Shown here: piece by piece, positions 3,213-19,120 of the stretch
How the letters are laid out: every line of letters starts with the position of its first letter
Position numbering within the stretch: the stretch's first letter is position 1
DNA from: Escherichia coli
Lineage (GTDB): Bacteria; Pseudomonadota; Gammaproteobacteria; Enterobacterales; Enterobacteriaceae
Strand: one strand, 5' to 3'
Assembly (NCBI RefSeq): GCF_036507355.1
Contig: NZ_AP027877.1
DNA length: 64,000 nt
Made by a program: the position numbers and the translations under genes
Notes under the pieces: generated by a model
What the model was told of the DNA's origin: nothing
What the model saw: only the letters and a program-made list of their open reading frames with translations
Database searches by the model: none

Positions 3213-3319
3213 TGGTAAAAGCAGGGGGTTATAGCGGGTAAGACCGGGGATCTTAAGTCTGCGCCATCGGCAGCATCGCTCACCCAGGGAAAGGATGGCG
3301 ATGCTGCGTTGAAATGTTA

Positions 3320-3568: not shown

Positions 3569-3572
3569 GAGT

Positions 3573-3767
3573 GTTTGGGGAGGTGGGGAAGGCGGTGATT
3601 CTGCATTTGCTCCACAACCAATACAATTTATAAAGACCTTGGCTAAGCATAAAAAAGCTATTTTTGGGTTTGAACCTTATGGATCAACTATGCAAGTAGT
3701 TGAGTTTGACTTGTCTGAGATTGATAAGGTTGTGGAAAAAATTTCACAGTCTTGCAATTGGAAATAA
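3573..3767 (+). other. Open frame ending ...MQVVEFDLSEIDKVVEKISQSCNWK*, possibly the 3' end of an unknown gene in AT-rich foreign DNA
   Basis: Track ORF 3540-3767; its 5' part overlaps the dsdA remnant so only the distal part is plausible. Confidence 0.2.
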
Positions 3768-3784
3768 CAAAAAAATCTCATATG

Positions 3785-3808
3785 AACCCAGTTGGCTCTG
3801 GGTTTTTT
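3785..3808 (+). terminator. Rho-independent terminator
   Basis: AACCCAG-TTGGCT-CTGGGTT hairpin followed by TTTTTTATTT. Confidence 0.55.
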
Positions 3809-4145
3809 ATTTCTGTTGTCTATAATGTATTCATAATTTTTACTGGGATACAGTGCACATAAAATCCCAATTGCGGTAGGACGATAACTGGATCAGGTGG
3901 AGGCACTTACGCAAGAATTGATAGTATTAATTTGCATAGAGCAACGCGAAGTTATTTATAAATTAACTGATATAGAGTACTAGATGTAATCCGAACCGGT
4001 TATGATTCGTCACCAATTTTGCAAGAGGCTGGGTAGGTAAGCTATTGGATACCGTAGGTAGCAAAAATATAGAAGGAGGGGAAGAATTGCTAAACTCGAG
4101 CATTCACTTAAATCTGAGTTATTTATTGTTAAGATATAATACACT

Positions 4146-4409
4146 TTGAATAATAGAGGCTATATGACAACGAAAATAAGCAAAGATGATAAACATCTGC
4201 TTGATCCTTATTTAAAATGGCTTGCAAACAAGAAGCTAATGGTTGCCTTCTGGTTGGTGCTAATGATATGTGGTTGCATATATGCATATATAGAAAATGA
4301 TTGGTCACTTCTTCCCCGATTCGGATGTTTAGGCATAATGATTGGCACATTGCTTACTCTTTCTCCGCTTTTTGCAGAAGGTATCTACCTATCAAGGCGA
4401 GAAGCATGA
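4146..4409 (+). CDS. Hypothetical small membrane protein (87 aa, two predicted TM helices); stop codon supplied by the IS end
   Basis: ORF with hydrophobic segments LMVAFWLVLMICGCIYAYI and GCLGIMIGTLLTLSPLF; TGA at 4407-4409 is the first 3 nt of the IS, so the native 3' end may be lost. Confidence 0.35.
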   Translation: MNNRGYMTTKISKDDKHLLDPYLKWLANKKLMVAFWLVLMICGCIYAYIENDWSLLPRFGCLGIMIGTLLTLSPLFAEGIYLSRREA

Positions 4410-4424
4410 ATCGCCACGGATAAT

Positions 4425-5237
4425 CTAGACACTTCCGAGCCGTTGATAATACTGGTTTTCATATTCTGTCGGTGACATCTGATCGCTGGAACCATGCCGA
4501 CGCTTACTGTTATAAAACATTTCGATGTAATCAAAAATATCGCTGCGGGCTTCTTCCCGCGTTCCGTAGATCTTTTTCTTTATCCGTTCGCGTTTCAACA
4601 ACTGGAAAAAGCTTTCTGCAACCGCATTATCATGGCAGTTACCGCGACGGCTCATGCTGCCATCCAGGCCGTGTGATTTCAGGAACGACTGCCACTCATG
4701 GCTTGTGTACTGACTGCCCTGATCCGAATGAACCAGCACCTGTTTTTGGGGATTACGGCGCCATACAGCCATCAGCAGTGCGTTCAGGACAATGTCCTTT
4801 GTCATCCGGGATTGCATGGACCAGCCGATAATTTTGCGTGAGAACAGATCAACAACCACGGCAAGATACAGCCAGCCTTCGTGGGTCCTGATGTAGGTTA
4901 TGTCCGTTACCCAACGCTTATCCGGAGCATCCGGATTGAACTGTCGCTGGAGCCTGTTGGGCGACACGATACTGGCCTCGCCTTTACGTGCCCGCGGGCT
5001 CCGGTATCCGACCTGAGCCTTTATCCCGACACGTTTCATCAGTCGCCAGACTCTGTTCACTCCGCACTGTTGCCCGCTGTCCCGCAGATCCAGATGGATT
5101 TTGCGATAACCATAGACGCATCCCGATTCCAGCCAGAACTGTTTAATCTGCCCTGTCAGCCTCAGGTCTGCCTGATGGCGTTGTGAATGCGGCTGCTGAA
5201 GCCAGGCGTAAAAACCACTGGGATGAACATCCAGCAC
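4425..5237 (-). CDS. IS3-family transposase OrfB (DDE integrase domain); expressed as OrfAB fusion by -1 frameshift
   Basis: 270-aa ORF from first Met; motifs DITYIRTHEGWLYLAVVVDLFSRKIIGW and HSDQGSQYTS; frame stays open upstream of the Met. Confidence 0.8.
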   Translation of the reverse strand: MLDVHPSGFYAWLQQPHSQRHQADLRLTGQIKQFWLESGCVYGYRKIHLDLRDSGQQCGVNRVWRLMKRVGIKAQVGYRSPRARKGEASIVSPNRLQRQFNPDAPDKRWVTDITYIRTHEGWLYLAVVVDLFSRKIIGWSMQSRMTKDIVLNALLMAVWRRNPQKQVLVHSDQGSQYTSHEWQSFLKSHGLDGSMSRRGNCHDNAVAESFFQLLKRERIKKKIYGTREEARSDIFDYIEMFYNSKRRHGSSDQMSPTEYENQYYQRLGSV

Positions 5238-5293
5238 CCGACAGAGCAGGCGAACAGGCCAGCAACAGGTGTTGTCACGGATAAAGGCGTACC

Positions 5294-5578
5294 TCAGTCG
5301 GACAGCTTTGCGAAGTACGCCGCGGCTTTTTTTAATATGTCCCGTTCGTCGGTAACCCGCTTCAGCTCTTTCTGGAGACGGCGGATCTCGGCCTGAGCAT
5401 CTGACTGTTCTTTATTAGCGGAAGAATCCGGACCGTACTTCTTTATCCAGGCGTAAAGGCTGTGGGTGGTGATATCGAGACGTGTTGCAACGCTGGCAAC
5501 AGAATAACCGCGATCAACAACCTGTTTGACTGCTTCAATTTTAAACTCTTCGGGATAACGCTTACCGCTCATGGGCAC
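5294..5578 (-). CDS. IS3-family transposase OrfA (HTH plus leucine zipper)
   Basis: 94-aa ORF MPMSGKRYPEEFKIEAVKQV...; ends near an A7G slippery run. Confidence 0.8.
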   Translation of the reverse strand: MPMSGKRYPEEFKIEAVKQVVDRGYSVASVATRLDITTHSLYAWIKKYGPDSSANKEQSDAQAEIRRLQKELKRVTDERDILKKAAAYFAKLSD

Positions 5579-5635
5579 CTCTCTTTAAGCCATCTTAAAT
5601 GACTCTGAGGTGTCTGTTAAACCCGTGGCGATTCA

Positions 5636-6036
5636 GGAAGAGTTCGAAATACGCAGCGAAATTGTTGGAATTCAAATTAGTTGATCTTGACGTTCTTAAG
5701 CGAACATACTTCTTTTTTGCAGACCGTTATCTGGCAGATGTAGTGAAGTTTGAAAACCTATGTGGTGATTTAGAGCATACATCGCAGAAGGCTAGGGATG
5801 AAAAAATTAAGGCCATGCAATTAAAGACAAACGACCCTGAAATTCAGTTAGGTGTTTGTATTTTTGTTTGTTTCAGGTTGCGAAACAACCTTTTTCATGG
5901 ACCAAAATGGCGTTATTTGCTTGATGGGCAAGAGGATTTGCTCTTAATTGCCGGAAATTTTATACATTCTATTCTATTACAGGTGCCTAGTAGAGATGGC
6001 TGGGAATTCAAGAATATTTTAACTTCTACTGATTAG
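5636..6036 (+). pseudogene. 3' fragment of an Abi-like (Abi_2 / HEPN-type) abortive-infection gene, truncated at the IS boundary
   Basis: Open frame starts exactly at the IS end with no start codon; C-terminal ...FRLRNNLFHGPKWRYLLDGQEDLLL contains an Rx4H HEPN-like motif; AT-rich. Confidence 0.4.
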
Positions 6037-6221
6037 CTTTGATTTTCCATAATCAACCCGCCATAATCATGTCATCGGAGCCTGAACAACTCCGGTGACT
6101 TCTGCGCTTTGAGGGGACTCAAAGTGCAAACGACAATCAGAACACCTTTCAACCAGTCACAGATGCAGAAATGCACCTGCAATATCTTGCATCCAACGTT
6201 TGACCTCTGCGGAGGTGAAGC

Positions 6222-6677
6222 GTGAACCTCCCACAAGACGGCATCAAATTACATCGCGGTAACTTCACTGCTATCGGTCAGCAGATCCAGCCTTATCTGG
6301 AGGAAGGCAAATGCTTTCGCATGGTGCTTAAACCGTGGCGGGAGAGACGCAGTCTTTCCCAGAATGCACTCAGCCACATGTGGTACAGCGAAATCAGTGA
6401 ATACCTCATCAGCAGGGGTAAAACGTTCGCCACTCCAGATTGGGTAAAAGATGCTCTCAAACACACTTATCTCGGTTATGAAACCAAAGAACTGGTTGAT
6501 GTCGTAACCGGTGAGATCACCACTATCCAGTCGTTACGCCATACCTCCGATCTTGATACCGGAGAGATGTATATCTTCCTGTGTAAGGTTGAAGCCTGGG
6601 CGGTGAATATTGACTGCCACCTGACTATTCCGCAGAGCTGCGAGTTCCAGCTGCTGCGCGACAAGCAGGAGGCGTAA
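6222..6677 (+). CDS. YbcN-like / NinB-family phage protein
   Basis: 151-aa ORF, GTG start, position and size as ybcN in DLP12-type nin regions. Confidence 0.55.
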
Positions 6678-6839
6678 TGGCTACACCGCTTATTCGTGTC
6701 ATGAACGGACACATCTACAAAGTACCAAATCGTCGTAAGCGTAACCCTGAGCTGAAGCCATCCGAAATACCAACTCTGCTCGGATATACCGCCAGCCTGG
6801 TTGATAAAAAATGGTTGCGACTGGCAGCAAGGAGGAATC

Positions 6840-7130
6840 ATGGCTGATTTGAGAAAAGCAGCGCGTGGTCGGGAATGCCAGGTAAGAATCCCTGGCGTAT
6901 GTAATAGCAATTCTGAAACGTCTGTACTGGCACATATCCGGCTGGCTGGATTGTGCGGTACCGGTATCAAACCGCCAGACCTGATTGCCACCATCGCATG
7001 TTCTGCCTATCACGACGAAATCGACCGCCGCACACATTTTGTCGATGCTGAGTATGCAAAAGAATGCGCGCTGGAAGGTATGGCGAGAACACAGGTTATC
7101 TGGCTGAAAGAGGGGGTTATTAAGGCGTGA
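6840..7130 (+). CDS. YbcO-like (DUF1364) phage protein
   Basis: [22 protein letters not shown]...[13 protein letters not shown], matches recalled DLP12 YbcO; upstream of rusA as in DLP12. Confidence 0.6.
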
Positions 7131-7489
7131 ATACTTACAGCATCACATTACCCTGGCCTCCGAGCAATAATCGCTATTACCGCCATAATCGCGGGCGCAC
7201 GCACATCAGCGCAGAGGGGCAGGCATACCGCGATAACGTCGCCCGAATCATTAAAAACGCAATGCTGGATATCGGCCTGGCTATTCCTGTGAAAATCCGC
7301 ATTGAGTGTCACATGCCGGATCGCCGTCGCCGTGACCTGGATAATCTGCAAAAAGCTGCTTTTGACGCACTTACCAAAGCAGGTTTCTGGCTGGATGATG
7401 CTCAGGTCGTTGATTACCGCGTTGTGAAGATGCCGGTTGTCAAAGGTGGAAAGCTGGAACTGACCATCACTGAACTGGGAGATGAATGA
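7127..7489 (+). CDS. rusA: Holliday junction resolvase RusA
   Basis: 120 aa, [26 protein letters not shown]..., near-identical to recalled RusA. Confidence 0.9.
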
Positions 7490-7626
7490 TGTTTGAGTTT
7501 TATACGGCAGAACTTCTTCGCCACCGCTGGATGCGCCTGCGCTTATATCGTTTCCCCGGTTCTGTTTTGACCGATTACCGAATACTGAGGAATTACGCCA
7601 AAACCCTGACAGGAGCAGGAGTATGA
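7489..7626 (+). CDS. ylcG: YlcG-like small phage protein (45 aa)
   Basis: ATG overlapping rusA stop (ATGA coupling); [24 protein letters not shown]...; below the ORF-track size cutoff, read by hand. Confidence 0.5.
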   Translation: MFEFYTAELLRHRWMRLRLYRFPGSVLTDYRILRNYAKTLTGAGV

Positions 7627-7696
7627 AGTCAGAGATAACAATCAACTAATACTGTTTTGTTGATTTTTGCTTGTAATTGGCGTTCTGGTCTGATTT

Positions 7697-8089
7697 TTGT
7701 GGAGTAAGTTGATGCGTGATATTCAGATGGTTCTTGAGCGTTGGGGAGCGTGGGCGGCTAATAATCATGAAGATGTGACCTGGTCGTCCATTGCCGCCGG
7801 TTTTAAGGGATTAATTCCTTCAAAAGTAAAATCTCGCCCACAATGTTGTGACGATGACGCGATGATCATTTGCGGGTGCATGGCCCGTCTGAAAAAGAAC
7901 AACAGCGATTTGCATGATTTATTGGTGGACTATTATGTCGGCGGCATGACTTTTATGGCGCTTGCACGTAAGCATGGGCGATCTGATTGTTGGGTTGGCA
8001 GGATGCTCCAGAAAGCTGAGGGCGTAGTGGAGGGTATGCTGATGGTGTTGGATCTCCGATTGGAGATGGATGCTGATTGTTCGAAATAA
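7697..8089 (+). CDS. Late-gene antitermination protein Q (QuuD / phage-82-type)
   Basis: 130-aa ORF (true start may be Met at 7712); Cys-rich zinc-binding region [16 protein letters not shown]; followed by terminator tR'. Confidence 0.8.
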
Positions 8090-8187
8090 TTAAAGGAAAA
8101 GTTGCTGTCTGATTGTCATTAGTCTAACATTTTAAATGTTGGAATCGCAACGTAGTTATTATCATATAACAGCTTGTTTCCTGATTT
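8090..8187 (+). promoter_or_regulatory. Probable late promoter pR' / qut region
   Basis: Position immediately 3' of Q and 5' of a strong terminator, as in lambdoid late control regions; promoter hexamers not confidently assigned. Confidence 0.3.
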
Positions 8188-8217
8188 AGCCAGCCTCCCC
8201 AAAGGCTGGTTTTTTTC
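8188..8217 (+). terminator. Rho-independent terminator (tR'-like)
   Basis: AGCCAGCCT-CCCCAA-AGGCTGGT hairpin followed by TTTTTTT. Confidence 0.55.
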
Positions 8218-8244
8218 TAATAAGTATTATTTCGGGTAGGGATT

Positions 8245-8769
8245 TTATTGTTTAACCCATAATAATTCATTGACATTGAATCCCAACTTTTGAGCGGTTC
8301 GCACATAGTCTGCTTTTACTTTATCTGGAATAGTTGGGGTCCTTGCCAGAATCCATAGGTATTCTCTGTTCGGACCACTGACAAGAGCATACTTATACTC
8401 ATCATCCAGTTTGATTACATTATAGCCACCATAGAAGGGGCCAAAAAACGAAACCTTCAATGCTGCAGTTTTAGTATCTCCAGTAAAGTATGCTTTACCT
8501 TCGCTCTCGCTCCATTTATTTTTCGTTGGATCGTATCCACGGTTAAGTACACGAATCCCTCCGTCGTTCCGTTTTCCATAAGTAGCGCTGACCTGTTCCA
8601 GATCACGTTCGAACCGGTTCTCGAGGCGAGCTATTTCATACCATTTTCCGAGGTAGCGGTTGGCGTCAAAATTTGTAATCGGCTGCACACCTTTAGGTGG
8701 TGTCGGGGCCTTACATGCTATAAGAGTGAAAGAGAGTGCAATGCCAGTCAACACAGGCCATAACTTCAT
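8245..8769 (-). CDS. Outer-membrane lipocalin, Blc homologue (lipoprotein)
   Basis: 174 aa; lipobox LIAC; NFDANRYLGKWYEIARLENRFERDLEQV...KVSFFGPFYGGYNVI closely parallels E. coli Blc; opposite strand to phage late genes. Confidence 0.85.
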   Translation of the reverse strand: MKLWPVLTGIALSFTLIACKAPTPPKGVQPITNFDANRYLGKWYEIARLENRFERDLEQVSATYGKRNDGGIRVLNRGYDPTKNKWSESEGKAYFTGDTKTAALKVSFFGPFYGGYNVIKLDDEYKYALVSGPNREYLWILARTPTIPDKVKADYVRTAQKLGFNVNELLWVKQ

Positions 8770-8961
8770 AATAAATCCTGTACTTTTGATAGTTGAGAGT
8801 AAGTATGAAAGATAGATGATTACGACCGATCACTTAAAGAACTTTCATACTATATTAGGAATAGTCCATAACAGAAAAATTGTCAGTGATGACGCCAGAA
8901 AGGCAATTTATTCCGTGCACTACACAGTTTATGTGTTAATGAATTAGTCAAGGGGGAGAAT

Positions 8962-9921
8962 ATGATAAAAAAACCTGTGATTGGAATCAGCGGTTGTTTG
9001 GCCGGTTCTGCTGTTCGTTTTGATGGTGGTCACAAAAGAGCTGACTTTTTAATGGACAAATTAGTGGAATGGGTAACATTCAGACCAGTATGTCCGGAAA
9101 TGGCTATAGGGCTGCCAGTTCCGCGTCCTGCTCTACGTCTTGTGCGCTCGACGCAAGGAAATATACGGATGTGTTTCAGCCACGACCAGAATGAGGATGT
9201 GACAGAGAGAATGACAGAGTTTAGTCGTTCTTATATGGACAAATTAAAGGATGTATCGGGGTTTGTGGTTTGTGCTAAATCTCCCAGCTGTGGCATGGAG
9301 CGCGTGCGTGTCTATGATGAAAATGGTAATCGAGGTCGTAAAGATGGAGTGGGACTATTTACGAGTACTTTGATGGAAAAGTTTTCCTGGCTACCGGTTG
9401 AAGAGGATGGGCGATTACATGATCCAGTGCTTCGTGAGAATTTTGTTGAAAGAGTTTTTGCTTTGCATGAGCTCAATCACCTTTACAAGGAGAAATTATC
9501 AAGAAGAGAGTTATTAGCTTTTCATAGTCGTTATAAGCTTCAGTTGTTGGCGCATAGTCAGGCAGGCTATAAAGATATGGGACCATTTGTGGCTGCAATA
9601 CACGAGTGGGCGGACCTTGAATCATACTTTGAGGTGTATCGTGATAAGCTGATGGCGATTCTCAGAAAACCTGCATCACGTAAAAATCACACGAATGTGC
9701 TGATGCATATACAGGGGTATTTTAGTAACTACTTAAGTACACGCCAGCGTAAAGAGTTGAGCGAGGTTATACTTAACTATCGTTCTGGCACATTACCTCT
9801 TCTTGCGCCGTTGACTCTGCTGAAGCATTATCTGGGTGAGTATCCTAATGATTACTTGCTTACACAGAATTACTTCGATCCCTATCCGGACGAACTGGCT
9901 CTAAGACTGATGGTAAATTAA
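8962..9921 (+). CDS. DUF523 (TudS-like thiouracil desulfidase, Fe-S) fused to DUF1722 (YbgA-like) protein
   Basis: 319 aa; N-terminal GISGCLAGSAVRFDGG, PVCPEMAIGLPVPR and SPSCGMERV cysteine motifs typical of DUF523; C-terminal LRENFVERVFALHEL...YKLQLLAHSQAGY typical of DUF1722. Confidence 0.55.
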   Translation: MIKKPVIGISGCLAGSAVRFDGGHKRADFLMDKLVEWVTFRPVCPEMAIGLPVPRPALRLVRSTQGNIRMCFSHDQNEDVTERMTEFSRSYMDKLKDVSGFVVCAKSPSCGMERVRVYDENGNRGRKDGVGLFTSTLMEKFSWLPVEEDGRLHDPVLRENFVERVFALHELNHLYKEKLSRRELLAFHSRYKLQLLAHSQAGYKDMGPFVAAIHEWADLESYFEVYRDKLMAILRKPASRKNHTNVLMHIQGYFSNYLSTRQRKELSEVILNYRSGTLPLLAPLTLLKHYLGEYPNDYLLTQNYFDPYPDELALRLMVN

Positions 9922-10263
9922 TTGTATGCGATATCATCCAAAAGGATGAGTTCCTGCATGCAGGATATTTACAATCGTAAAAACTACACTATGATACCCA
10001 GAGTGTCAGTTTGTATAAAAACTCTGTTTACGCTGAAGAAACAATTGAGATGCAACTTAAAGTTGGTAAACATGCCAGTCAAAATATATAATATTATGAT
10101 TCCACGCAGCTATATATAATATAACAGATTGGTTTAATAATTTGTCTTTGTGAGTTAAATACATAATTTTATACTTGTGATGCAATGAAATTTTCCTTAT
10201 TGTTGAACTGGCGAATATTGATTTTCCACCTATACTTACCTGGTGTAACCCCAATGATATCAG

Positions 10264-11004
10264 GTGGATAATATGCCATACATATGTTCTATCATTTTGG
10301 TGTTGAACTCGTTTGATGTCCGAATTGGTAAAGAAGATATTTTGTTTAAAAAAGGAAGTGCTGTTCTCATTGATTACAATTTAAAAGATTTTTTTTCATC
10401 AAATATAGATCATGTAATGATCGTAGATGTTGAAGAGAAAACAGTTAATGATTTCTTTAAAAGCAACACACTCTCACCTTTTTCTGTAAGAAGGTTTTAT
10501 CCGGCATACTTGATGGTGGAATGTGAAGATTTTTCATTGTTAAAGAACTTGATTGCATGCTTGAATTGTGATGGCAGAACTGTGGATTTTGTTAGAAATC
10601 AAATATCACTTGCATGTCTTGCTATCTTATCTTCAGAGAAAATAGTGCAAAGTTTTTTATTTGGATGTCTTAATAGTTTAGGAAGTAAAGTTAAGGCTAT
10701 TATTCACACGGATATATCTGCAGCATGGAGACTTTGTGATATATCTTCAAGACTGTATCTGAGTGAAAGTCTGTTAAAAAGAAAATTAAAGCACGAAGGC
10801 TTATCATTTAGTAAGTTAATTCTTGAAGAGCGAATGGTGATGGCGGAAAGGTTATTAAGCTACAATTTATATTCTGTTGGAAAAGTTGCTGAGATATGCG
10901 GTTATGAAAACACGTCATATTTTGTGAGTGTTTTCAGAAGATATTTTGGTGTTCCTCCCCATCAATATTCATCAAGATTTTTTTTAGAAAAAGACATGAT
11001 GTAA
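10264..11004 (+). CDS. AraC-family transcriptional regulator, AppY/EnvY-like
   Basis: 246 aa; C-terminal double HTH (WRLCDISSRLYLSESLLKRKLK...VGKVAEICGYENTSYFVSVFRRYFGVPP); very AT-rich gene and upstream region. Confidence 0.8.
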   Translation: MDNMPYICSIILVLNSFDVRIGKEDILFKKGSAVLIDYNLKDFFSSNIDHVMIVDVEEKTVNDFFKSNTLSPFSVRRFYPAYLMVECEDFSLLKNLIACLNCDGRTVDFVRNQISLACLAILSSEKIVQSFLFGCLNSLGSKVKAIIHTDISAAWRLCDISSRLYLSESLLKRKLKHEGLSFSKLILEERMVMAERLLSYNLYSVGKVAEICGYENTSYFVSVFRRYFGVPPHQYSSRFFLEKDMM

Positions 11005-11065
11005 CATGATGCGTTTTAATGATTTTGTAATTTTCGTATTTGATAATTGTATGATGCTTTCAGCT

Positions 11066-11097
11066 ACGCCAGAATAATCGCTGGCGTTTTTCTTTTT
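11066..11097 (+). terminator. Rho-independent terminator after the AraC-like gene
   Basis: ACGCCAG-AATAATCG-CTGGCGT hairpin followed by TTTTTCTTTTT. Confidence 0.4.
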
Positions 11098-11192
11098 GAA
11101 TAGATGTTCAAGCCTTACGCTAATGTAACTTCTATACCTTTCCTCTTCGTTCCGAACCGTGTACACCATCCGTTATTTGCGGAGGTGAGGCT

Positions 11193-11408
11193 ATGAAATC
11201 TATGGATAAGTTAACAACGGGCATTGCCTACGGCACCTCCGCAGGCAGTGCTGGCTACTGGTTTTTACAGTTGCTCGATAAAGTCACGCCCTCACAGTGG
11301 GCAGCAATAGGTGTGCTGGGTAGCCTGGTATTTGGCCTGCTGACGTACCTGACAAACCTTTATTTCAAGATTAAAGAAGATAAGCGCAAGGCTGCGAGAG
11401 GTGAATAA
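11193..11408 (+). CDS. Class II holin (phage-21 S21-type pinholin)
   Basis: 71 aa, [26 protein letters not shown]..., two TM segments, matches recalled S21/EssD. Confidence 0.85.
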
Positions 11409-11905
11409 TGCCTCCATCATTACGAAAAGCCGTTGCTGCTGCTATTGGTGGCGGAGCAATTGCTATAGCATCAGTGTTAATCACTGGCCCAAGTGGTAAC
11501 GATGGTCTGGAAGGTGTCAGCTACATACCATACAAAGATATTGTTGGTGTATGGACTGTATGTCACGGGCATACAGGAAAAGACATCATGCTCGGTAAAA
11601 CGTATACCAAAGCAGAATGCAAAGCCCTCCTGAATAAAGACCTTGCCACGGTCGCCAGACAAATTAACCCGTACATAAAAGTTGATATACCGGAAACAAC
11701 GCGCGGCGCTCTTTACTTGTTCGTTTACAACGTGGGCGCTGGCAATTTCAGAACATCGACGCTTCTTCGCAAAATAAACCAGGGCGATATCAAAGGCGCA
11801 TGTGATCAGCTACGTCGCTGGACATATGCTGGCGGTAAGCAATGGAAAGGGCTGATGACTCGCCGTGAGATTGAGCGTGAAGTCTGTTTGTGGGGGCAAC
11901 AATGA
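11408..11905 (+). CDS. SAR endolysin (phage-21 R-type lysozyme)
   Basis: 165 aa; N-terminal Gly/Ala-rich signal-anchor-release segment [18 protein letters not shown]; lysozyme catalytic region. Confidence 0.88.
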
Positions 11906-12345
11906 GTAGAGTAACCGCGATTATCTCCGCTCTGGTTATCAGCATCATCGTCTGCCTGTCATGGGCTGTTAATCATTACCGTGATAACGCCATGACCTAC
12001 AAAGAACAGCGCGACAAAGCCACATCCATCATCGCTGACATGCAGAAGCGTCAACATGATGTAGCAGAACTCGACGCCAGATACACAAAGGAGCTTGCTG
12101 ATGCTAACGCGACTATCGAAAGTCTTCGTGCTGATGTTTCTGCTGGTCGTAAGTGGCTGCACGTCAAAGCAGTCTGTCCGGACAAGCATAAAACCACCGC
12201 CGCCTCCGGCGTGGATGATGCTTCCAGCCCCAGACTTACTGACACCGCTCAACGGGATTATTTCGTTCTCAGAGAGCGCATCGAAACCATAACTAACCAA
12301 TTGAATGGCCTGCAAGAATATGTGAGATCACAGTGTTCATATTAG
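11902..12345 (+). CDS. i-spanin Rz
   Basis: N-terminal TM helix then coiled-coil periplasmic domain; overlaps endolysin stop. Confidence 0.8.
12101..12292 (+). CDS. o-spanin Rz1 (lipoprotein) embedded in +1 frame of Rz
   Basis: Lipobox LVVSGC followed by Pro-rich stretch KPPPPPAW; entirely inside Rz. Confidence 0.65.
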
Positions 12346-12758
12346 AAAAGTCTTATCATAAGATTTTTGTATATGGATGCATTATGTCTCAATACGCTCA
12401 CGTTGCTTTAATCGCTTATCATTTGGTGGCTGATAGCTCAATGACTCCTCGTGATGCATGGGATGCAGCTATCGCAGAGGTTACAGAAAGCGAATCGTCA
12501 AGAAAGAAGATATGCCCAAGGGCAACATTTCTCGCCCTGGCGGATAGCGGTTACCTGAAGAATGTAAAACCACTGCATGGGGAGAAAAAGGGCGGTAAGT
12601 TGTACCAAAGGGCAATTGAAGTTGCGAATCTGATTCTTGATTTACCCGGAATCAGTAAAGCTGAATTGGTTGATAAAACTGGTTACAAAGACAGGCAAGG
12701 GTCTTATGACCTGATTCTCGCTCTGTATCATCATGAGCAACTCCAGCGATCGGAATAA
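12333..12758 (+). CDS. YbcV-like hypothetical phage protein
   Basis: 141-aa ORF (start possibly Met at 12386) at the position of ybcV in DLP12; no recognisable motif. Confidence 0.4.
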
Positions 12759-12875
12759 TTATCCCAGCATCAGTGTCAAAAATAGGCAGTGATACGCTAT
12801 TTTCCTGAAAATACTTTACTAACATTTTATGAGAATTATCCTAGTAATGTGTTTATTTAAAAGGAGTTTGGGTTT

Positions 12876-13079
12876 ATGAAAATTCTCTGGGTCATCAGTC
12901 TTTTGTGTAGTGCTATTGGATTTATTGAAGGAATCCTCGGGGTTTTCGGTGCTCAGAGTGCTCCACAACAGGCTGCAGGTGCAGCAATGGGAGTAGCATG
13001 GGCAGTTATTCCATATTGTATTTGTCGTGCTATCCAACAATTGCGCCCTCGAGAAGTCATTATTAAAAAGGAAGAATGA
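12876..13079 (+). CDS. YbcW-like small membrane protein (67 aa)
   Basis: ORF with RBS-like GGAG upstream; two hydrophobic segments. Confidence 0.4.
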   Translation: MKILWVISLLCSAIGFIEGILGVFGAQSAPQQAAGAAMGVAWAVIPYCICRAIQQLRPREVIIKKEE

Positions 13080-13144
13080 CCAGATCTTATCCGGTGTTTT
13101 TTCTGTCTAAGCCTCGCGTCGCGGGGCTTTTTATTGGAGCCAGC

Positions 13145-13495
13145 ATGCCACCACGAACACCAAAAGCCTGCCGTGTTCGCGGCTGCCGCCATACCACAAC
13201 TGACCCGTCAGGCTATTGCGAAAGCCACAAAAGTGAAGGCTGGAAGCAATACAAGCCGGGCCAGTCCAGACACCAGCGCGGTTATGGTTCGAAATGGGAT
13301 GTTATCCGTGAACGTGTGCTCAAGCGTGACAAAGGACTGTGTCAGTTATGTCTGCGTGGTGGTGTGGTACGTGAGGCGAAAACCGTTGACCACATCATCC
13401 CTAAAGCGCATGGCGGCACTGATGCCGACAGCAATCTGCAGAGCCTGTGCTGGCCGTGTCATAAGGCGAAGACGGCCCGTGAACGGTTGAAGTAA
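13145..13495 (+). CDS. HNH endonuclease (packaging-associated)
   Basis: CxxC...DHIIPKAHGGTDADSNLQSLCWPCH HNH motif; directly upstream of terminase genes; start taken at MPPRTPKA. Confidence 0.8.
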   Translation: MPPRTPKACRVRGCRHTTTDPSGYCESHKSEGWKQYKPGQSRHQRGYGSKWDVIRERVLKRDKGLCQLCLRGGVVREAKTVDHIIPKAHGGTDADSNLQSLCWPCHKAKTARERLK

Positions 13496-13611
13496 GAACC
13501 AGTTCCCACTGCCAGAGGGGAGGGGCGGGTCAAATCCCTGTGACCTGACGTCTTCCGGACTGCCCGCCCCATCGTTTTTTTATACCCGCGAAAAATGAAA
13601 TTTAACCAGGA

Positions 13612-14115
13612 GTGCCGCATATGGCTGGAACGGCGGGGCGTTCCGGGCGTCGCCCCAAGCCAACGGCGCGCAAGGCGCTGGCCGGAAACCCCGGCAAGCG
13701 AGCCCTGAATAAAGATGAACCTGTTTTTACGCCCATCAAAGGTGTTGAGCCACCGGAGTGGTTCGCTGAAGAAGATCTCCCTCTCGCCACGATCATGTGG
13801 CAACTGACAACCAAAGAACTCTGCGGTCAGGGCCTGCTGTGCGTGACTGACCTGGCGGTACTTGAGCGGTGGTGTGTGGCCTATGAGTTCTGGCGACGTG
13901 CCGTGAAAAATATTGCCAGACAGGGCAACACCATCACCGGTGCAATGGGCGGTATGGTCAAAAATCCTGAGCTGACCGCCAAAAAAGAACAGGAGTCCGA
14001 GATGAGCAGTACGGGGGCAATGCTCGGACTCGACCCCAGCAGCCGCCAGCGTCTGATTGGCCTGGCGGGGCAGAAGAAAGCCACTAACCCGTTTCTGAAA
14101 ATTATCGAATCATGA
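13612..14115 (+). CDS. Terminase small subunit (P27 family)
   Basis: 167-aa ORF preceding and overlapping terL; terminase small-subunit-like sequence. Confidence 0.7.
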
Positions 14116-15845
14116 GCCGGAAATCTTACCCCAACGTAAATGCTGCCAATCAGTATGCCCGGGATGTCGTTCGCGGAAAGATTGTGGCCTGCCAGTTTGT
14201 GATTCAGGCCTGCCAGCGCCATCTTGATGACCTGATGGCGGAAAAAAGTAAGTCGTTTCGTTACCGCTTCGACAAGGACCTGGCTGAACGGGCCGCCAAA
14301 TTTATTCAGCTGTTGCCGCATACCAAGGGTGAGTGGGCATTCAAACGGATGCCCATCACGCTGGAGCCGTGGCAGCTCTTTGTGATCTGCTGTGCGTTTG
14401 GCTGGGTCAATAAAGGTACCCGGCTGCGCCGCTTCCGGGAGGTGTATACCGAAATCCCCCGTAAGAACGGCAAATCGGCAATCTCTGCCGGTGTTGCCCT
14501 GTATTGTTTTGCCTGTGATAACGAGTTTGGCGCGGAAGTGTATTCCGGTGCCACGACAGAGAAACAGGCGTGGGAAGTCTTTCGCCCGGCGCGACTGATG
14601 TGTAAACGCACACCCATGCTGACGGAAGCGTTCGGGATTGAGGTTAACGCCTCAAACATGAACCGTCCGGAGGATGGCGCGCGGTTTGAACCGCTGATCG
14701 GTAACCCCGGTGATGGTTCATCACCCCACTGTGCTGTGGTGGATGAATATCACGAGCATGCCACAGATGCACTTTACACCACGATGCTTACCGGGATGGG
14801 CGCGCGACGTCAGCCACTGATGTGGGCCATTACTACTGCCGGGTACAACATTGAGGGGCCGTGCTACGACAAGCGGCGGGAAGTCATCGAGATGCTCAAC
14901 GGCTCGGTGCCCAACGATGAACTGTTCGGGATCATCTATACCGTTGATGAAGGTGACGACTGGACCGACCCGCAGGTGCTGGAAAAAGCCAATCCAAATA
15001 TTGGCGTGTCGGTTTATCGCGAATTTTTGTTAAGTCAGCAGCAGCGTGCGAAAAATAACGCCCGTCTGGCAAACGTCTTTAAAACAAAACACCTCAATAT
15101 CTGGGTGTCGGCGCGTTCGGCGTATTTCAACCTGGTGAGCTGGCAGAGCTGCGAGGATAAATCACTGACCCTTGAGCAGTTCGAGGGGCAGCCGTGCATT
15201 CTGGCCTTTGACCTGGCGCGCAAGCTGGATATGAACAGCATGGCGCGACTTTATACCCGCGAGATTGACGGTAAAACGCATTACTACAGTGTGGCCCCGC
15301 GTTTCTGGGTACCGTATGACACGGTGTACAGCGTCGAGAAAAATGAAGATCGCCGGACAGCCGAACGCTTTCAGAAATGGGTGGAAATGGGCGTTCTGAC
15401 CGTTACCGATGGTGCGGAGGTGGATTATCGCTACATCCTCGAGGAGGCCAAAGCGGCGAACAAAATCAGCCCGGTCAGTGAGTCACCCATCGACCCCTTC
15501 GGGGCGACCGGGTTGTCACATGACCTTGCTGATGAAGACCTGAACCCCATCACTATCATTCAGAACTACACCAACATGTCCGACCCGATGAAAGAGCTGG
15601 AAGCGGCAATTGAATCGGGGCGCTTTCATCATGATGGCAATCCCATCATGACCTGGTGTATCGGCAACGTGGTCGGCAAAACCATTCCGGGTAACGATGA
15701 TGTGGTGAAGCCCGTCAAAGAGCAGGCGGAAAACAAAATCGATGGTGCAGTTGCGCTGATTATGGCGGTTGGCAGAGCCATGCTGTACGAGAAAGAAGAC
15801 ACGCTGTCTGACCACATTGAGTCCTATGGGATCCGCTCGCTTTAA
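14112..15845 (+). CDS. Terminase large subunit
   Basis: 577 aa; ATPase and nuclease regions typical of TerL. Confidence 0.9.
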
Positions 15846-15856
15846 CTGAGGTAATT

Positions 15857-16039
15857 ATGATCATGCTGATTCTCGCGCCTCTGGTGGGCGTGCTGGGGGC
15901 GCTTTTGCTGGCGTATGGTGCCTGGCTGATTTATCCCCCGGCGGGGTTTGTTGTTGCCGGGGCGTTGTGCCTGTTCTGGTCGTGGCTGGTGGCGCGATAT
16001 CTCGACCGTACACAGTCGTCTGTCGGCGGAGGTAAATAG
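15857..16039 (+). CDS. Small hydrophobic phage protein (60 aa)
   Basis: ORF between terL and portal, mostly hydrophobic. Confidence 0.3.
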
Positions 16040-17280
16040 TGTTCTTTTCGGGATTATTTCAACGAAAAAGTGACGCACCGGTGACCACGCCAGCAGAGCT
16101 GGCGGATGCTATCGGGTTGTCCTACGACACCTATACCGGAAAGCAGATCAGCAGCCAGCGGGCCATGCGACTGACGGCGGTTTTTTCCTGTGTCAGGGTG
16201 CTGGCGGAGTCGGTCGGGATGTTGCCCTGCAACCTGTATCACCTGAACGGCAGCCTGAAGCAGAGAGCCACTGGCGAACGTCTGCATAAGCTGATCTCCA
16301 CGCATCCCAATGGCTATATGACGCCGCAGGAGTTCTGGGAGCTGGTGGTCACCTGTCTGTGCCTGCGGGGAAACTTTTACGCCTACAAAGTGAAAGCATT
16401 TGGCGAAGTGGCTGAACTGCTGCCCGTCGATCCCGGCTGTGTGGTACCGAAGCTTAACAGTAGCTGGGAGCCGATCTATCAGGTCACATTCCCGGATGGC
16501 TCCACGGATGTACTGAGCCAGGAGGATATCTGGCATGTGCGCACGCTGACGCTGGACGGACTGGTGGGGCTGAATCCCATCGCCTATGCCCGCGAGGCAA
16601 TATCGCTGGCAGCTGCGACCGAAGAGCACGGGGCCAGACTGTTCAGCAATGGCGCGGTGACGTCGGGTGTGTTGCGTACAGAGCAGACGCTGTCAGATCA
16701 GGCTTATGAGCGCCTGAAGAAAGATTTTGAGGAGCGTCACACCGGGCTTGGCAATGCTCACCGCCCGATGATCCTTGAGATGGGGCTGGACTGGAAGTCG
16801 ATGGCGCTGAACGCCGAGGACAGCCAGTTCCTGGAAACCCGCAAGTTTCAGCTTGAAGAAATCTGTCGTCTGTTCCGGGTGCCGTTGCACATGGTGCAGA
16901 ACACCGATCGCGCCACCTTCAACAATATCGAAGAGCTGGGGCTGGGATTTATCAACTATTCACTGGTGCCGTATCTGACCCGCATCGAACAGCGGATCAA
17001 CACCGGACTGGTACGAAAAAGTAAGCAGGGCGTTTATTACGCCAAATTTAACGCCGGGGCGTTACTGCGCGGGGATATGAAGTCCCGTTTTGAAGCCTAC
17101 GCCACCGGGATCAACTGGGGAATTTACTCTCCCAATGACTGCCGCGACCTGGAAGATATGAATCCGCGTCCCGGTGGTGATGTCTATCTCACACCGATGA
17201 ACATGACCACGAAACCCTCCGATGGCAGTAAGGCCGGTAAGCAGAAGGATAACGCCAATGCAGACGAAACAACGTCTTGA
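16039..17280 (+). CDS. Portal protein (HK97 family)
   Basis: 413 aa, position after terL, portal-like sequence. Confidence 0.85.
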   Translation: MFFSGLFQRKSDAPVTTPAELADAIGLSYDTYTGKQISSQRAMRLTAVFSCVRVLAESVGMLPCNLYHLNGSLKQRATGERLHKLISTHPNGYMTPQEFWELVVTCLCLRGNFYAYKVKAFGEVAELLPVDPGCVVPKLNSSWEPIYQVTFPDGSTDVLSQEDIWHVRTLTLDGLVGLNPIAYAREAISLAAATEEHGARLFSNGAVTSGVLRTEQTLSDQAYERLKKDFEERHTGLGNAHRPMILEMGLDWKSMALNAEDSQFLETRKFQLEEICRLFRVPLHMVQNTDRATFNNIEELGLGFINYSLVPYLTRIEQRINTGLVRKSKQGVYYAKFNAGALLRGDMKSRFEAYATGINWGIYSPNDCRDLEDMNPRPGGDVYLTPMNMTTKPSDGSKAGKQKDNANADETTS

Positions 17281-17908
17281 TGTACTGCTGAGTCTGAAAT
17301 CTGTCAGTGACTCCGGTGAGTTTGAAGGGTATGGCTCCGTCTTTGGTGTAAAGGACAGCCACGATGATGTGGTGATGTCCGGGGCATTTGCTGCTTCCCT
17401 GCGGGCGTGGAGTGACAGAAAAGCGTTACCTGCGCTGCTCTGGCAGCACCGCATGGATGAACCCATCGGTGTTTACACCGAAATGAAGGAAGACGATGTC
17501 GGGCTTTACGTCAGGGGACGGTTGCTTATTGATGATGATCCCCTCGCAAAACGCGCACATGCACACATGAAGGCCGGTTCGTTAACCGGCCTTTCTATTG
17601 GGTACGTCCTGAAAGACTGGGAATACGACCGGAGCAAAGAAGCCTTTCTGCTGAAAGAAATCGACCTCTGGGAAGTCAGCCTGGTGACGTTCCCGTCTAA
17701 CGACGAGGCGCGGATCAGCGACGTCAAGAACGCACTGGCCCGCGGGGAAATCCCCGAACAGAAAAAAATCGAAAGAGTCCTGCGTGATGTCGGACTCTCC
17801 CGTACCCAGGCCAAAGCATTCATGGCCGGGGGCTATGGCGCACTGTCCCTGCGCGACGCTGAGGATGTGGGCTCTGCACTGAATGCACTGAAAAATCTGA
17901 ACTTCTAA
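17258..17908 (+). CDS. Prohead protease (HK97 family)
   Basis: ORF following portal; start taken at MQTKQRLDVLL. Confidence 0.7.
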   Translation: MQTKQRLDVLLSLKSVSDSGEFEGYGSVFGVKDSHDDVVMSGAFAASLRAWSDRKALPALLWQHRMDEPIGVYTEMKEDDVGLYVRGRLLIDDDPLAKRAHAHMKAGSLTGLSIGYVLKDWEYDRSKEAFLLKEIDLWEVSLVTFPSNDEARISDVKNALARGEIPEQKKIERVLRDVGLSRTQAKAFMAGGYGALSLRDAEDVGSALNALKNLNF

Positions 17909-17922
17909 TCAGGAGAAATACG

Positions 17923-18582
17923 ATGGCGGTTGATATTAAAGATGTCGAACAGGTCGCGCAGGAGCTGCAGCAGAAGTTTGACGACTTCAAAGCAAAGAAC
18001 GACAAGCGCGTGGATGCGATTGAGCAGGAAAAAGGCAAGCTTGCCGGGCAGGTGGAAACCCTGAACGGGAAACTCAGCGAGCTGGAAAATCTCAAAAGCG
18101 ACCTTGAAAAAGAGCTGTTTGAGCTGAAACGTCCGGCAACGGCGTATGTCGAAAGCGGGGTGCTGCGCATTCAGCGTGATGTCACCACGTACAGGAAAAA
18201 TGCTTACGGGGTTGCGGATAACAGCTACCTCGACAGCGAGACGCTGCATACCAGTGCGTATGTACTGCGCAAACTGAAATCCGTCATTACCAGTAAGTAC
18301 GGGCGTCACAAGCTTGCCAGCGACGGTACCCGCTTTGGTCCCGGTCAGGCGATTGTCACCCCGGCGGTGATCAAAGGGGAACTGCTGGCAACCTACCGTC
18401 AGCTTGGGCGTGCGGGGATCGTGGAAAACTACGAACTGTTTAAGCAGTACCTGGTTGTGGAGCGTGATGCCAGCGATCCGAACCGCCTGAACACGCTGTT
18501 CCCGCCTGACTATGTTAACCAGTTGCGTGTCTTTGCCGTGGTTAACCAGTTCCGTCTTCAGTATTCAGAGGAGTCTGCATAA
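17923..18582 (+). CDS. Phage structural protein; N-terminal coiled-coil resembling the delta domain of an HK97-like major capsid protein but far too short (219 aa); probable deletion remnant
   Basis: N-terminus AQELQQKFDDFKAKNDKRVDAIEQEKGKLAGQVETLNGKL is delta-domain-like; a complete capsid gene would be about 400 codons. Confidence 0.35.
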   Translation: MAVDIKDVEQVAQELQQKFDDFKAKNDKRVDAIEQEKGKLAGQVETLNGKLSELENLKSDLEKELFELKRPATAYVESGVLRIQRDVTTYRKNAYGVADNSYLDSETLHTSAYVLRKLKSVITSKYGRHKLASDGTRFGPGQAIVTPAVIKGELLATYRQLGRAGIVENYELFKQYLVVERDASDPNRLNTLFPPDYVNQLRVFAVVNQFRLQYSEESA

Positions 18583-18938
18583 TGGCCCGTATCGGGGGAA
18601 CCTGTTATTTCAAAATTGACGGTCAGCAGCTATCGCTGACCGGCGGCATTGAGGTGCCCATGAACAGGACGGTCAATGATGACATCATCGGCCTGGACGG
18701 TTCAGTGGACCGCAAAGAAACTCACCGTGCGCCTTATGTCAAAGGGACCTTCAAGGTGCCGAAGAATTTTCCGGTGAGCAAAATCACCTCGTCTGATGAG
18801 ATGACCATCACTGCCGAGCTGGCAAACGGTCAGGTCTATGTACTGTCGTCTGCCTGGCTGCACGGCGAAGCGAACCATAATGCCGAAGAAGGCACGGTCG
18901 ATCTTGAGTTCCACGGTGAAGAAGGGGATTACCAGTAA
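18582..18938 (+). CDS. Hypothetical phage structural protein (118 aa)
   Basis: ORF coupled to flanking genes; no secure assignment. Confidence 0.3.
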   Translation: MARIGGTCYFKIDGQQLSLTGGIEVPMNRTVNDDIIGLDGSVDRKETHRAPYVKGTFKVPKNFPVSKITSSDEMTITAELANGQVYVLSSAWLHGEANHNAEEGTVDLEFHGEEGDYQ

Positions 18939-19120
18939 TGAAAGAGCTTGAGTTAAAGAAACCGATTACCGCTCATGGCGAGACACTCTCCGTACTGGAG
19001 TTTGATGAGCCCACCGGGAAAGATGTCCGCGAGCTGGGATATCCCTACCAGATGAATCAGGATGAGTCCGTCAGACTTCTGGCGCATGTGGTATCGAAAT
19101 ACATCGTGCGGCTGCCCTGA
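18938..19120 (+). CDS. Hypothetical phage protein (60 aa)
   Basis: ORF with ATGA overlap to next gene. Confidence 0.3.

Follow-up and report, generated by a model that had tools for sequence, protein, structure and literature searches.

Does an intact lysis cassette mark a working prophage? The question is raised by positions 11193-12345 of a 64,000-nucleotide stretch of Escherichia coli DNA (contig NZ_AP027877.1; hereafter, the window), for which the original prediction described a phage-21-type cassette of a pinholin, a signal-anchor-release (SAR) endolysin and Rz with an embedded Rz1, and from it concluded that the late region is probably functional. Here, we present an analysis of the cassette and its surroundings, according to which the region very probably holds a lysis cassette related to those of phage 21, DLP12 and SfI that has stayed intact within a defective prophage at argW.

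All four open reading frames (S, R, Rz and Rz1) were found on the plus strand at 11193-12345, and their translations are intact, with no frameshift or internal stop. Families were assigned using Pfam and PHROGs, and the four proteins matched their expected Pfam families with E-values from 1e-15 to 1e-44. NCBIfam returned no family for S, Rz, Rz1 or the upstream antiterminator Q and only sub-threshold matches for R, and an Rfam search of the cassette region gave no match. S and R meet in a TAATG junction with a 1-nt overlap, and R and Rz in an ATGA junction with a 4-nt overlap, both as in phage 21. These matches of predicted family and junction are far beyond chance. The cassette is followed by a DUF6979 gene.

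The holin gene S has two potential starts. The long form (11193-11408, plus strand; 71 aa), equivalent to the antipinholin S21-71, begins with Met1 followed by Lys2, and the short form (11202-11408, plus strand; 68 aa), equivalent to the pinholin S21-68, begins at Met4. The MKSM dual-start motif (11193-11204) aligns with the two starts annotated in phage 21 for S21-71 and S21-68 and predicts two products, the longer of which would carry an extra positive charge. S scores 120.9 bits (cutoff 26; E=2.2e-35) with PF04971 ("Bacteriophage P21 holin S"), the alignment spanning all but the last of the 64 model positions (1-63), and its residues are identical to those of DLP12 EssD at 70 of 71 positions and to those of S21-71 at 62 of 71. 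The first transmembrane domain (TMD1, approximately residues 9-27) is weakly hydrophobic, with no 15-residue Kyte-Doolittle window above 1.0, and the second (TMD2, approximately residues 36-56) is strongly hydrophobic, with such windows reaching 2.12. With about 70 residues, two TMDs, weak first and strong second, and a charged C-terminus, S thus has the features of a pinholin, and the claim of a 71-residue, S21-like protein with two TMDs is borne out. At the DNA level, S and S21 are approximately 78% identical with saturated synonymous sites, and the differences comprise 36 synonymous and 11 non-synonymous changes (dN/dS 0.03). S21-68 itself forms channels of approximately 2 nm, by which the membrane is depolarised and a cytoplasmic endolysin is not released (PMC9636201). 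A Shine-Dalgarno GGAGG, read from the sequence (11181-11185, plus strand), lies 7 nt ahead of the first ATG and forms part of the 3' arm of a small hairpin predicted at 11164-11187, and a similar start-region hairpin is predicted for phage 21 and SfI. With folding z-scores of only -1.2 to -1.6, which are not significant, a regulatory hairpin at the S start was not counted.

R (11408-11905, plus strand; 165 aa) is a SAR endolysin of the GH24 lysozyme type (PF00959, E=3.6e-44), identical at 164 of 165 residues to RrrD (PDB 4ZPU) and at 162 of 165 to R21 (PDB 3HDE), both of which have solved structures. Residues 1-97 show no difference from R21, and the Gly/Ala-rich SAR segment that had been predicted is therefore the same in both proteins: residues 8-26 (11429-11485, plus strand) hold 7 Ala, 3 Gly, 1 Ser and 1 Thr (12 of 19 positions), with Arg6-Lys7 just before them, as expected for a SAR domain. 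The catalytic triad of Glu35 (11510-11512), Asp44 (11537-11539) and Thr50 (11555-11557), all on the plus strand, is kept in 102, 100 and 102, respectively, of 106 diverse R homologues. It forms the E-x8-D-x5-T motif, in line with a lysozyme fold, and this catalytic motif has been described for SAR endolysins (PMC9239132). Judging from its 98% identity to R21, R would undergo Sec-dependent export, inactive tethering and release on depolarisation. The dN/dS of the R lineage is 0.07.

One position in R stands out. Codon 104 (11717-11719, plus strand) reads TTG (Leu) in place of the TCG or TCA (Ser) of relatives, a rare substitution. The position is part of the conserved A-L-x-S-F-x-Y-N-x-G, with Ser in 85 and Leu in 1 of the 106 homologues, and Asn108, four residues further on, is Asn in 102 of them. 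The 61-nt segment bearing the TTG codon was matched exactly in none of the 71 phage records that hold the segment (best match 98.4%, one mismatch). At least three prophages of other backgrounds share the Leu104 allele, and the additional nucleotide differences, 3-12 in number, are all synonymous. Decay peculiar to this remnant was rejected as the origin of Ser104Leu, since prophages of other types encode an identical protein from genes that differ by synonymous changes only. The substitution may reduce endolysin activity.

Rz (11902-12345, plus strand; 147 aa from ATG; PF03245, E=2.2e-39) has the layout of an i-spanin, with an N-terminal TMD (approximately residues 4-24; hydropathy up to 2.85 for residues 4-18) and two periplasmic helical stretches with a linker between them. 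In the AlphaFold model, which is of moderate confidence (mean pLDDT 65), these appear as a helix at residues 2-80, an unstructured part at 81-113 and a second helix at 114-145. Rz is identical to SfI Rz at 146 of 147 residues. Rz1 (12101-12292, plus strand; 63 aa from ATG; PF06085, E=3.7e-15), the o-spanin lipoprotein precursor, lies wholly inside Rz at an offset of +1 (11902 mod 3 = 1; 12101 mod 3 = 2), with AAGGAG at 12087-12092 ahead of its ATG, and the same embedded +1 architecture was found in eight other alleles. It is identical to the embedded open reading frame of SfI at 63 of 63 residues. Its exact sequence is labelled "Rz1 family lipoprotein" in public records, and the embedded gene has been left out of the annotation in related genomes. 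The lipobox L-V-V-S-G-C (12143-12160, plus strand; residues 15-20) aligns with LVVVGC of phage 21 Rz1, and Cys20 is followed by Thr-Ser (LVVSGC-TS), with no Asp at +2. A lipoprotein cysteine followed by a residue other than Asp is expected for sorting to the outer membrane. A run of PPPPP at residues 32-36 contributes to the 9 Pro among 44 mature residues, and the predicted signal peptide, the lipobox Cys and the short proline-rich mature part together point to an o-spanin. The predicted lipobox, proline stretch and embedding of Rz1 are thus all present, and in the alignment with phage 21 (OL657228), which the original prediction had itself proposed as a check, both the SAR segment and the lipobox on which it hinged are there.

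The cysteines of the spanin deserve separate attention. Rz has two periplasmic cysteines, Cys92 and Cys145, which do not vary among 8 alleles and align with lambda C99 and C152, and Rz1 is without a second cysteine, having no equivalent of the Cys29 found in lambda and phage 21 Rz1. Spanin homodimer disulfides involve lambda Rz C99 and C152 and Rz1 C29, of which one of C152 and C29 suffices, and the absence of Cys29 from SfI Rz1 has already been published (PMC6139136). With Cys92 and Cys145 of Rz kept, the predicted proteins hold the minimal one cysteine needed but not the full three-cysteine pattern. Inactivation of the spanin through the missing Rz1 Cys29 was rejected, given that SfI has the same Rz1, that IdasGreatGrand Rz1 is also without a periplasmic cysteine, and that one cysteine is enough (PMC6139136).

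Taken allele by allele, the cassette reads as a mosaic of known parts, with S as in DLP12 EssD, R as in RrrD/R21 and Rz/Rz1 as in SfI. The label "phage-21-type" is therefore apt for the identity of every element, but close relatedness to phage 21 holds only for R. As far as the sequence tells, the components contain nothing new and the biology is already known, as the original prediction had also recognised: the parts are near-identical to proteins studied genetically or structurally (S21/EssD, R21/RrrD) or recorded in sequenced phages (SfI Rz/Rz1). The exact sequences of all four proteins are already in public collections, and of 5,426 complete E. coli genomes, 5,058 carry a homologous cassette.

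The surroundings of the cassette give a different picture from its genes. The right end of the prophage is marked by an integrase and attachment site (22461-23854, minus strand; ARAGORN, Rfam and Pfam), comprising the integrase gene at 22461-23654 and a tRNA-Arg(CCT) at 23780-23854, and the site is argW. The terminase-to-tail genes belong to the SfI/SfV-like phage group. Compared with the intact relative prophage L002, a total of 11.6 kb of head and tail genes has been lost at two deletion junctions. At the first (18135-18138; blastn map against the L002 annotation), 4.2 kb is missing (L002 positions 20120 to 24343), and the start of the capsid gene is joined to the end of the tail-sheath gene in a fused open reading frame (17923-18582) that matches only the C-terminal domain of the sheath in Pfam. 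At the second (19102-19114; blastn map and Pfam of the remaining open reading frames), 7.4 kb is missing (25322 to 32744), including the tape measure, the DNA circularization protein, and tail assembly and baseplate genes. Furthermore, the tail-fibre gene (19570-20502) has an in-frame stop at codon 237 (20278-20280, plus strand), where L002 has Gln. A 1,230-bp IS3-family insertion sequence (4406-5635, minus strand; Pfam rve and HTH_21) sits inside the leftover nin-like region; it is 99.8-99.9% identical to IS3-family elements, and a second copy was found. No cI, cro, O or P was detected in the prophage, homology to the phage genome IdasGreatGrand begins just past the replication genes of the latter, and a second att copy was not found. 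Complete immunity, replication and head/tail regions and two att sites, as expected of an inducible lambdoid or SfV-like prophage, are thus not present. Besides the lysis genes, Q, HNH, both terminase subunits, the portal and the prohead protease are intact. From this gene content, the prophage is predicted to be unable to make particles or to control Q from pR. The expectation of a probably functional late region fails on the structural deletions, the tail-fibre stop and the missing immunity/replication region, and the competent-looking part is the lysis cassette only.

The decay appears in related assemblies as well. Near-identical sibling assemblies carry still larger deletions, and in the window and three sibling remnants alike, structural genes have been deleted and Q and the lysis genes kept. 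The same deletion junctions were found in no complete E. coli RefSeq genome, and the 50-nt junction pattern was absent from GTDB species representatives. The flanking chromosome is rich in insertion sequences and shows 97-98.8% identity to E. coli. The dN/dS values of S and R (0.03 and 0.07) point to strong purifying selection in the lineage of these genes. Over 12 kb, only 0-2 substitutions separate the remnant from its siblings, because of which the intactness of the 1.15-kb cassette says almost nothing on selection; it reflects recent decay rather than proven selection.

Upstream of the cassette, the late antiterminator Q (7712-8089, plus strand; 125 aa from ATG; PF06530, E=2.5e-51), labelled "antiterminator Q family protein" in relatives, is the presumed activator of cassette transcription. 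A terminator-like hairpin with a T-run was found by pattern scan approximately 100 nt past Q (8188-8211, plus strand) and is a candidate tR', which could be read through by Q-modified polymerase. Between Q and S lie approximately 3 kb of cargo with lipocalin, YbgA-like and AraC-like genes, and a second terminator-like hairpin with a T-run (11066-11087, plus strand; pattern scan and sequence) is located past the AraC-like gene, 105 nt before S. A scan for a late promoter past Q gave only weak consensus matches at chance frequency, and neither DLP12 nor L006 could be aligned to the region past Q. From Q through the cargo to S and R, the sequence corresponds to that of IdasGreatGrand, a deposited phage genome with the record source "mud in swamp", with 97.0% identity over 3524-12165.

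Based on work on phage 21 and lambda (PMC9636201, PMC9239132), a working order for the cassette can be proposed. Transcription would depend on Q (7712-8089) passing the terminators at 8188-8211 and 11066-11087, across the 3 kb of cargo. S would be translated from two starts, giving the 68-aa pinholin and a 71-aa form whose extra Lys would delay triggering. The weakly hydrophobic helix 1 of the pinholin would then exit the inner membrane and helix 2 would form small heptameric channels, leading to collapse of the membrane potential. R would reach the inner membrane by way of Sec and stay anchored there in inactive form through its Gly/Ala-rich SAR segment until depolarisation sets it free, whereupon it would refold and cut the peptidoglycan. 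Finally, Rz in the inner membrane and Rz1 as an outer-membrane lipoprotein would form a bridge through which the outer membrane would be disrupted, most likely by membrane fusion. The cassette would probably be competent if expressed, but since particle production and pR control of Q are lost, it is probably silent or weakly expressed.

Other readings of the locus were weighed against this one. It is unlikely that the cassette is dead or crippled despite its open reading frames, either through weakening of the endolysin by Ser104Leu or because loss of pR-driven Q has left the genes untranscribed. Such damage would agree with a Leu where 80% of diverse homologues have Ser, four residues before Asn108 (Asn in 102 of 106), with the lack of the Leu104 allele in all 71 phage records, with the missing cI and pR region and with the two terminator-like sites between Q and S. 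However, several different prophages, apparently complete as far as sequenced, retain the Leu104 allele with only synonymous changes around it, the catalytic residues of R are all intact, and the DLP12 cassette, likewise cut off from phage control, is reportedly transcribed (PMC7918800). Quite unlikely, too, is a working module kept by the host for cell-wall turnover, vesicles or biofilm, as proposed for essD-rrrD-rzpD/rzoD of DLP12. Deletion of the DLP12 operon in K-12 raises vesicle production approximately four-fold and its expression is stress-responsive (PMC7918800), S and R match DLP12 EssD and RrrD at 70 of 71 and 164 of 165 residues, and the deletions in the window and its three siblings hit structural genes and spare Q and the lysis genes. 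However, four near-identical genomes of such recent divergence are far too small a sample to reveal selection, and terminase and portal, without a plausible host role, are equally intact. An improbable extension of the host-kept module would have Ser104Leu weaken the endolysin enough for low-level expression to be tolerated, with the cassette partly replacing the DLP12 module in an insertion-sequence-rich and possibly Shigella-like genome; Shigella flexneri has lost the DLP12 module, a loss described as pathoadaptive (PMC7918800). It is highly improbable that a complete, inducible prophage with a functional late (morphogenesis) region uses the cassette to leave the cell. In its favour stand intact genes for Q, S, R, Rz/Rz1, HNH, both terminase subunits, the portal and the prohead protease, but the deletion map refutes this reading, with 4.2 and 7.4 kb of head/tail genes missing compared with L002, capsid and sheath merged into one fragment, a stop in the tail-fibre gene, and immunity/replication genes and the distal att site absent.

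The preferred reading therefore remains that of an intact cassette stranded in a defective prophage. At argW, it identifies the late operon of an SfV/SfI-like prophage that has decayed, and an intact lysis cassette is thus no evidence for a working prophage. For annotation, it also draws attention to an embedded Rz1 gene that has been passed over in related genomes.

Among known systems, lambda S-R-Rz-Rz1 shares the four-gene logic, the dual-start holin, the embedded Rz1 and spanins of the same families (PF03245, PF06085). In contrast, lambda S105 is a three-helix canonical holin making very large holes and lambda R a soluble cytoplasmic transglycosylase (PMC9636201), instead of which the window would encode, by sequence family, a two-helix pinholin and a Sec-exported SAR lysozyme. 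Phage 21 (OL657228; R21 3HDE/3HDF) has the same gene order, 1-nt and 4-nt overlaps and MKSM motif, an R identical at 162 of 165 residues with the same SAR segment and triad, and an Rz1 embedded at +1 with lipobox and proline run. It differs in S (62 of 71 in protein but approximately 78% in DNA), in Rz (approximately 68% identical, the window Rz having a 7-residue deletion) and in Rz1 (approximately 58%, without Cys29 in the window), and its cassette lies directly past pR'/tR' and two tRNA genes, with bor after it, whereas that of the window has 3 kb of cargo before it and DUF6979 after it. The DLP12 genes of K-12, essD-rrrD(ybcS)-rzpD/rzoD, likewise lie past a PF06530-type Q and cargo in a defective lambdoid prophage, but Rz (97 identical of 154 aligned columns) and Rz1 (35 of 63) are of another allele. 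The prophage in the window is also set apart from DLP12 by its location at argW, its lipocalin/YbgA-like/AraC-like cargo and Leu104 in R, compared with a different chromosomal site, nmpC and Ser104 in DLP12. The Shigella phage SfI (NC_027339), an SfV/e14-like temperate myovirus, has the S21 allele of S (62 of 71 to the window), Ser104 in R, a cassette directly past Q and two tRNA genes, and integration at thrW. Unlike the S gene, its Rz (146 of 147) and Rz1 (63 of 63) match those of the window, the DNA being 99-100% identical from approximately 11830 on, including the DUF6979 gene, and SfI with these matching spanin genes has been induced and forms plaques (PMC3636060).

The four lysis genes lie on the plus strand at exactly the positions of the original prediction, both in the ORF list and in the raw sequence, and comprise S (11193-11408; 71 aa, starting MKSM; PF04971, 'Bacteriophage P21 holin S', E=2.2e-35), R (11408-11905; 165 aa; PF00959, E=3.6e-44), Rz (11902-12345; 147 aa counted from the ATG, which was taken as the start, the mechanical ORF opening at a GTG further upstream; PF03245, E=2.2e-39) and Rz1 (12101-12292; 63 aa from its ATG, with AAGGAG upstream at 12087-12092; PF06085, E=3.7e-15). 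The S stop and the R start share one base within TAATG, the R-Rz overlap is the four-base ATGA, and Rz1 is, as had been described, fully embedded in Rz with a frame shift of +1. At the sequence level the assignment of all four to their Pfam families is unambiguous, and the PHROGs holin, endolysin and spanin families are concordant with it. Homologous cassettes were found in 5,058 of 5,426 complete E. coli genomes, and all six proteins looked up (S, R, Rz, Rz1, an AraC-like regulator and Q) are already present in public collections as exact sequences, that of Rz1 annotated as 'Rz1 family lipoprotein'. In the RefSeq annotation of a closely related prophage locus (L001) and of an intact E. coli relative (L002), S, R and a 'lysis protein' (Rz) are given and the embedded Rz1 gene is left out. 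The cassette is well-known biology that had been identified correctly, and one over-reaching inference is corrected here.

As phage 21 reference we used the curated genome OL657228, which annotates the S21-71/S21-68 dual-start pair, R, Rz and Rz1; the SAR segment and the lipobox are both present in the alignment. S is identical to its phage 21 counterpart at 62 of 71 residues and shares the MKSM dual start, and its weakly hydrophobic first helix (no 15-residue window above 1.0) followed by a strongly hydrophobic second one (up to 2.1) matches what has been described of the S21 pinholin, in line with the S21-like holin of 71 aa originally proposed. R is identical at 162 of 165 residues, including the first 97 N-terminal residues, and therefore has the SAR segment, with 12 Gly, Ala, Ser or Thr among the 19 residues 8-26, as well as the Glu35/Asp44/Thr50 triad; in the Protein Data Bank it matches RrrD (4ZPU) at 164 and R21 (3HDE) at 162 of 165 residues. 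Rz is ~68% identical to that of phage 21, with a 7-residue deletion, and Rz1 ~58% identical. The expected Rz1 lipobox and proline-rich stretch were both seen: the lipobox reads LVVSGC (LVVVGC in phage 21) with Thr directly after its Cys, PPPPPAW is shared with phage 21, and 9 of the 44 mature residues are Pro. The N-terminal helix of Rz is strongly hydrophobic, and AlphaFold, given eight alleles, predicts with moderate confidence two helices (residues 2-80 and 114-145) with an unstructured linker between them, matching the published i-spanin layout. By homology with the published pathway, which leads from pinholes through a depolarised membrane and endolysin release to outer-membrane disruption by spanins (PMC9636201, PMC9239132), S pinholes would depolarise the membrane, the tethered endolysin would then be released and refold, and the spanin complex would finally disrupt the outer membrane.

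The cassette had also been taken as confirming a probably functional late region, which it does not support, since the surrounding prophage is, judging by its gene content, defective. This prophage ends at tRNA-Arg(CCT) (23780-23854), which adjoins the integrase. Window positions 6039-18138, 18135-19114 and 19102-25000 map to L002 8001-20120, 24343-25322 and 32744-38642, respectively, which reveals two internal deletions. The first (4.2 kb, junction 18135-18138) removed the stretch from the capsid gene to the sheath gene, most of both included, and the second (7.4 kb, junction 19102-19114) removed the tape measure, DNA circularization protein and baseplate genes. By Pfam, all that is left is terminase, portal, protease, tube and a fibre-assembly gene, together with three damaged genes, namely a sheath fragment, a Gp48 fragment and a truncated fibre. 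In the glycine-rich tail-fibre gene (19570-20502) the reading frame is interrupted by a stop at codon 237 (20278-20280), where the intact L002 has Gln. On the left side, homology with the deposited phage genome IdasGreatGrand starts immediately past that phage's cI, cro, cII, O and P genes, all five of which are missing from the window. Phage-derived DNA begins ~300 bp past emrY (end 3212; region 3212-6039), there are no dsdCXA or csc genes, which in other E. coli lie between emrY and the argW prophage, and no second att copy was found in the window. The leftover early region carries an IS3-family element of 1,230 bp (4406-5635); a second copy (35440-36669; 99.84% identical) lies ~30 kb away in inverted orientation. 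The chromosomal DNA flanking the prophage matches E. coli genomes at only 97-98.8% identity and contains several IS elements. Three public assemblies have the same remnant at 99.97-100% identity with larger deletions, from window position 17605 to 19632 (L004, L005) or 17350 to 20908 (L009), which suggests that decay is stepwise and ongoing in closely related strains. The remnant with the junctions seen in the window occurs in 0 of the 5,426 complete E. coli RefSeq genomes. The DNA may come from a Shigella or from an E. coli lineage that has not been sampled. Next to the integrase, a minus-strand acyltransferase of the Acyl_transf_3 family (21196-22320), possibly an O-antigen acetylase, occupies the place where SfI/SfII-type phages have O-antigen modification genes.

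Upstream of the cassette, Q (7712-8089; PF06530) is intact and is followed by a terminator-like hairpin (8188-8211). Between this and a second such hairpin (11066-11087), and thus between Q and the holin, lie three cargo genes (8245-11004): a Blc-like lipocalin (8245-8769, minus strand), a YbgA/2-thiouracil-desulfurase-like protein (8962-9921) and a YdeO/AppY-like AraC-family regulator (10264-11004) whose similarity to YdeO spans the whole protein (E=7e-37, a match that does not reach the NCBIfam cutoff). Shiga toxin genes occupy this Q-to-holin position in Stx phages. The Q-cargo-S-R layout is one borne by a sequenced phage, as IdasGreatGrand has the same arrangement (97.0% alignment over window 3524-12165), and the cargo block also occurs in E. 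coli argW prophages. On the other side, a DUF6979 protein (126 aa, 12378-12758) and a probable membrane protein of 67 aa (PHROG 12304; 12876-13079) separate the spanin genes from the HNH endonuclease/terminase genes; phage 21 and DLP12, the cryptic prophage of E. coli K-12, have bor at this position, and the Shigella phage SfI has the DUF6979 gene as in the window. No late promoter of the cassette was identified downstream of Q, and pR is gone from the prophage. The intactness of the cassette is uninformative, as the remnant, with 0-2 substitutions over 12 kb relative to its siblings, is too young. The nearest precedent for a stranded cassette is DLP12, for whose lysis operon transcription, stress responsiveness and an effect on vesicle production are reported (PMC7918800), so by analogy a host role is conceivable here.

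At codon 104 (11717-11719) the R gene reads TTG and so encodes Leu; its relatives encode Ser there, with TCG or TCA. At this position, part of the motif A-L-x-S-F-x-Y-N-x-G, 106 diverse homologues drawn from an exhaustive HMMER search have Ser in 85 cases, Asp in 10 and Leu in one. The 61-nt segment bearing TTG had an exact match in 0 of the 71 phage records with the segment, the best being one base off. The exact Leu104 protein was found on 16 public contigs, lambda-like and P22-like prophages included, and the R genes of these carriers differ from that of the window at 0-12 positions, every one synonymous; such varied carriers with synonymous-only differences suggest a tolerated allele. In Rz1 the only Cys is the lipobox Cys20, and Cys29, present in lambda, phage 21 and DLP12, is absent. 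The literature already describes this sole unusual spanin feature in SfI, whose o-spanin without C29 is expected to keep its function because one of Rz C152 and Rz1 C29 is enough (Kongari et al. 2018; PMC6139136), and SfI proved inducible and plaque-forming (PMC3636060). In the window Rz the two periplasmic cysteines, Cys92 and Cys145, are both retained, and neither varies across the eight alleles.

Compared by sliding nucleotide identity and at the protein level, the cassette is a mosaic of known alleles in three parts. S is the same allele as DLP12 EssD (70/71 residues, 92-100% DNA identity), whereas its DNA is only ~78% identical to S21, with synonymous sites saturated; R is near all three references (phage 21, DLP12 and SfI); and downstream of ~11830 the DNA matches SfI at 99-100% identity, with 146 of 147 Rz and 63 of 63 Rz1 residues shared. 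'Phage-21-type' is thus correct as a mechanistic class, and among named relatives DLP12 is closest in S and R, and SfI in the spanins.
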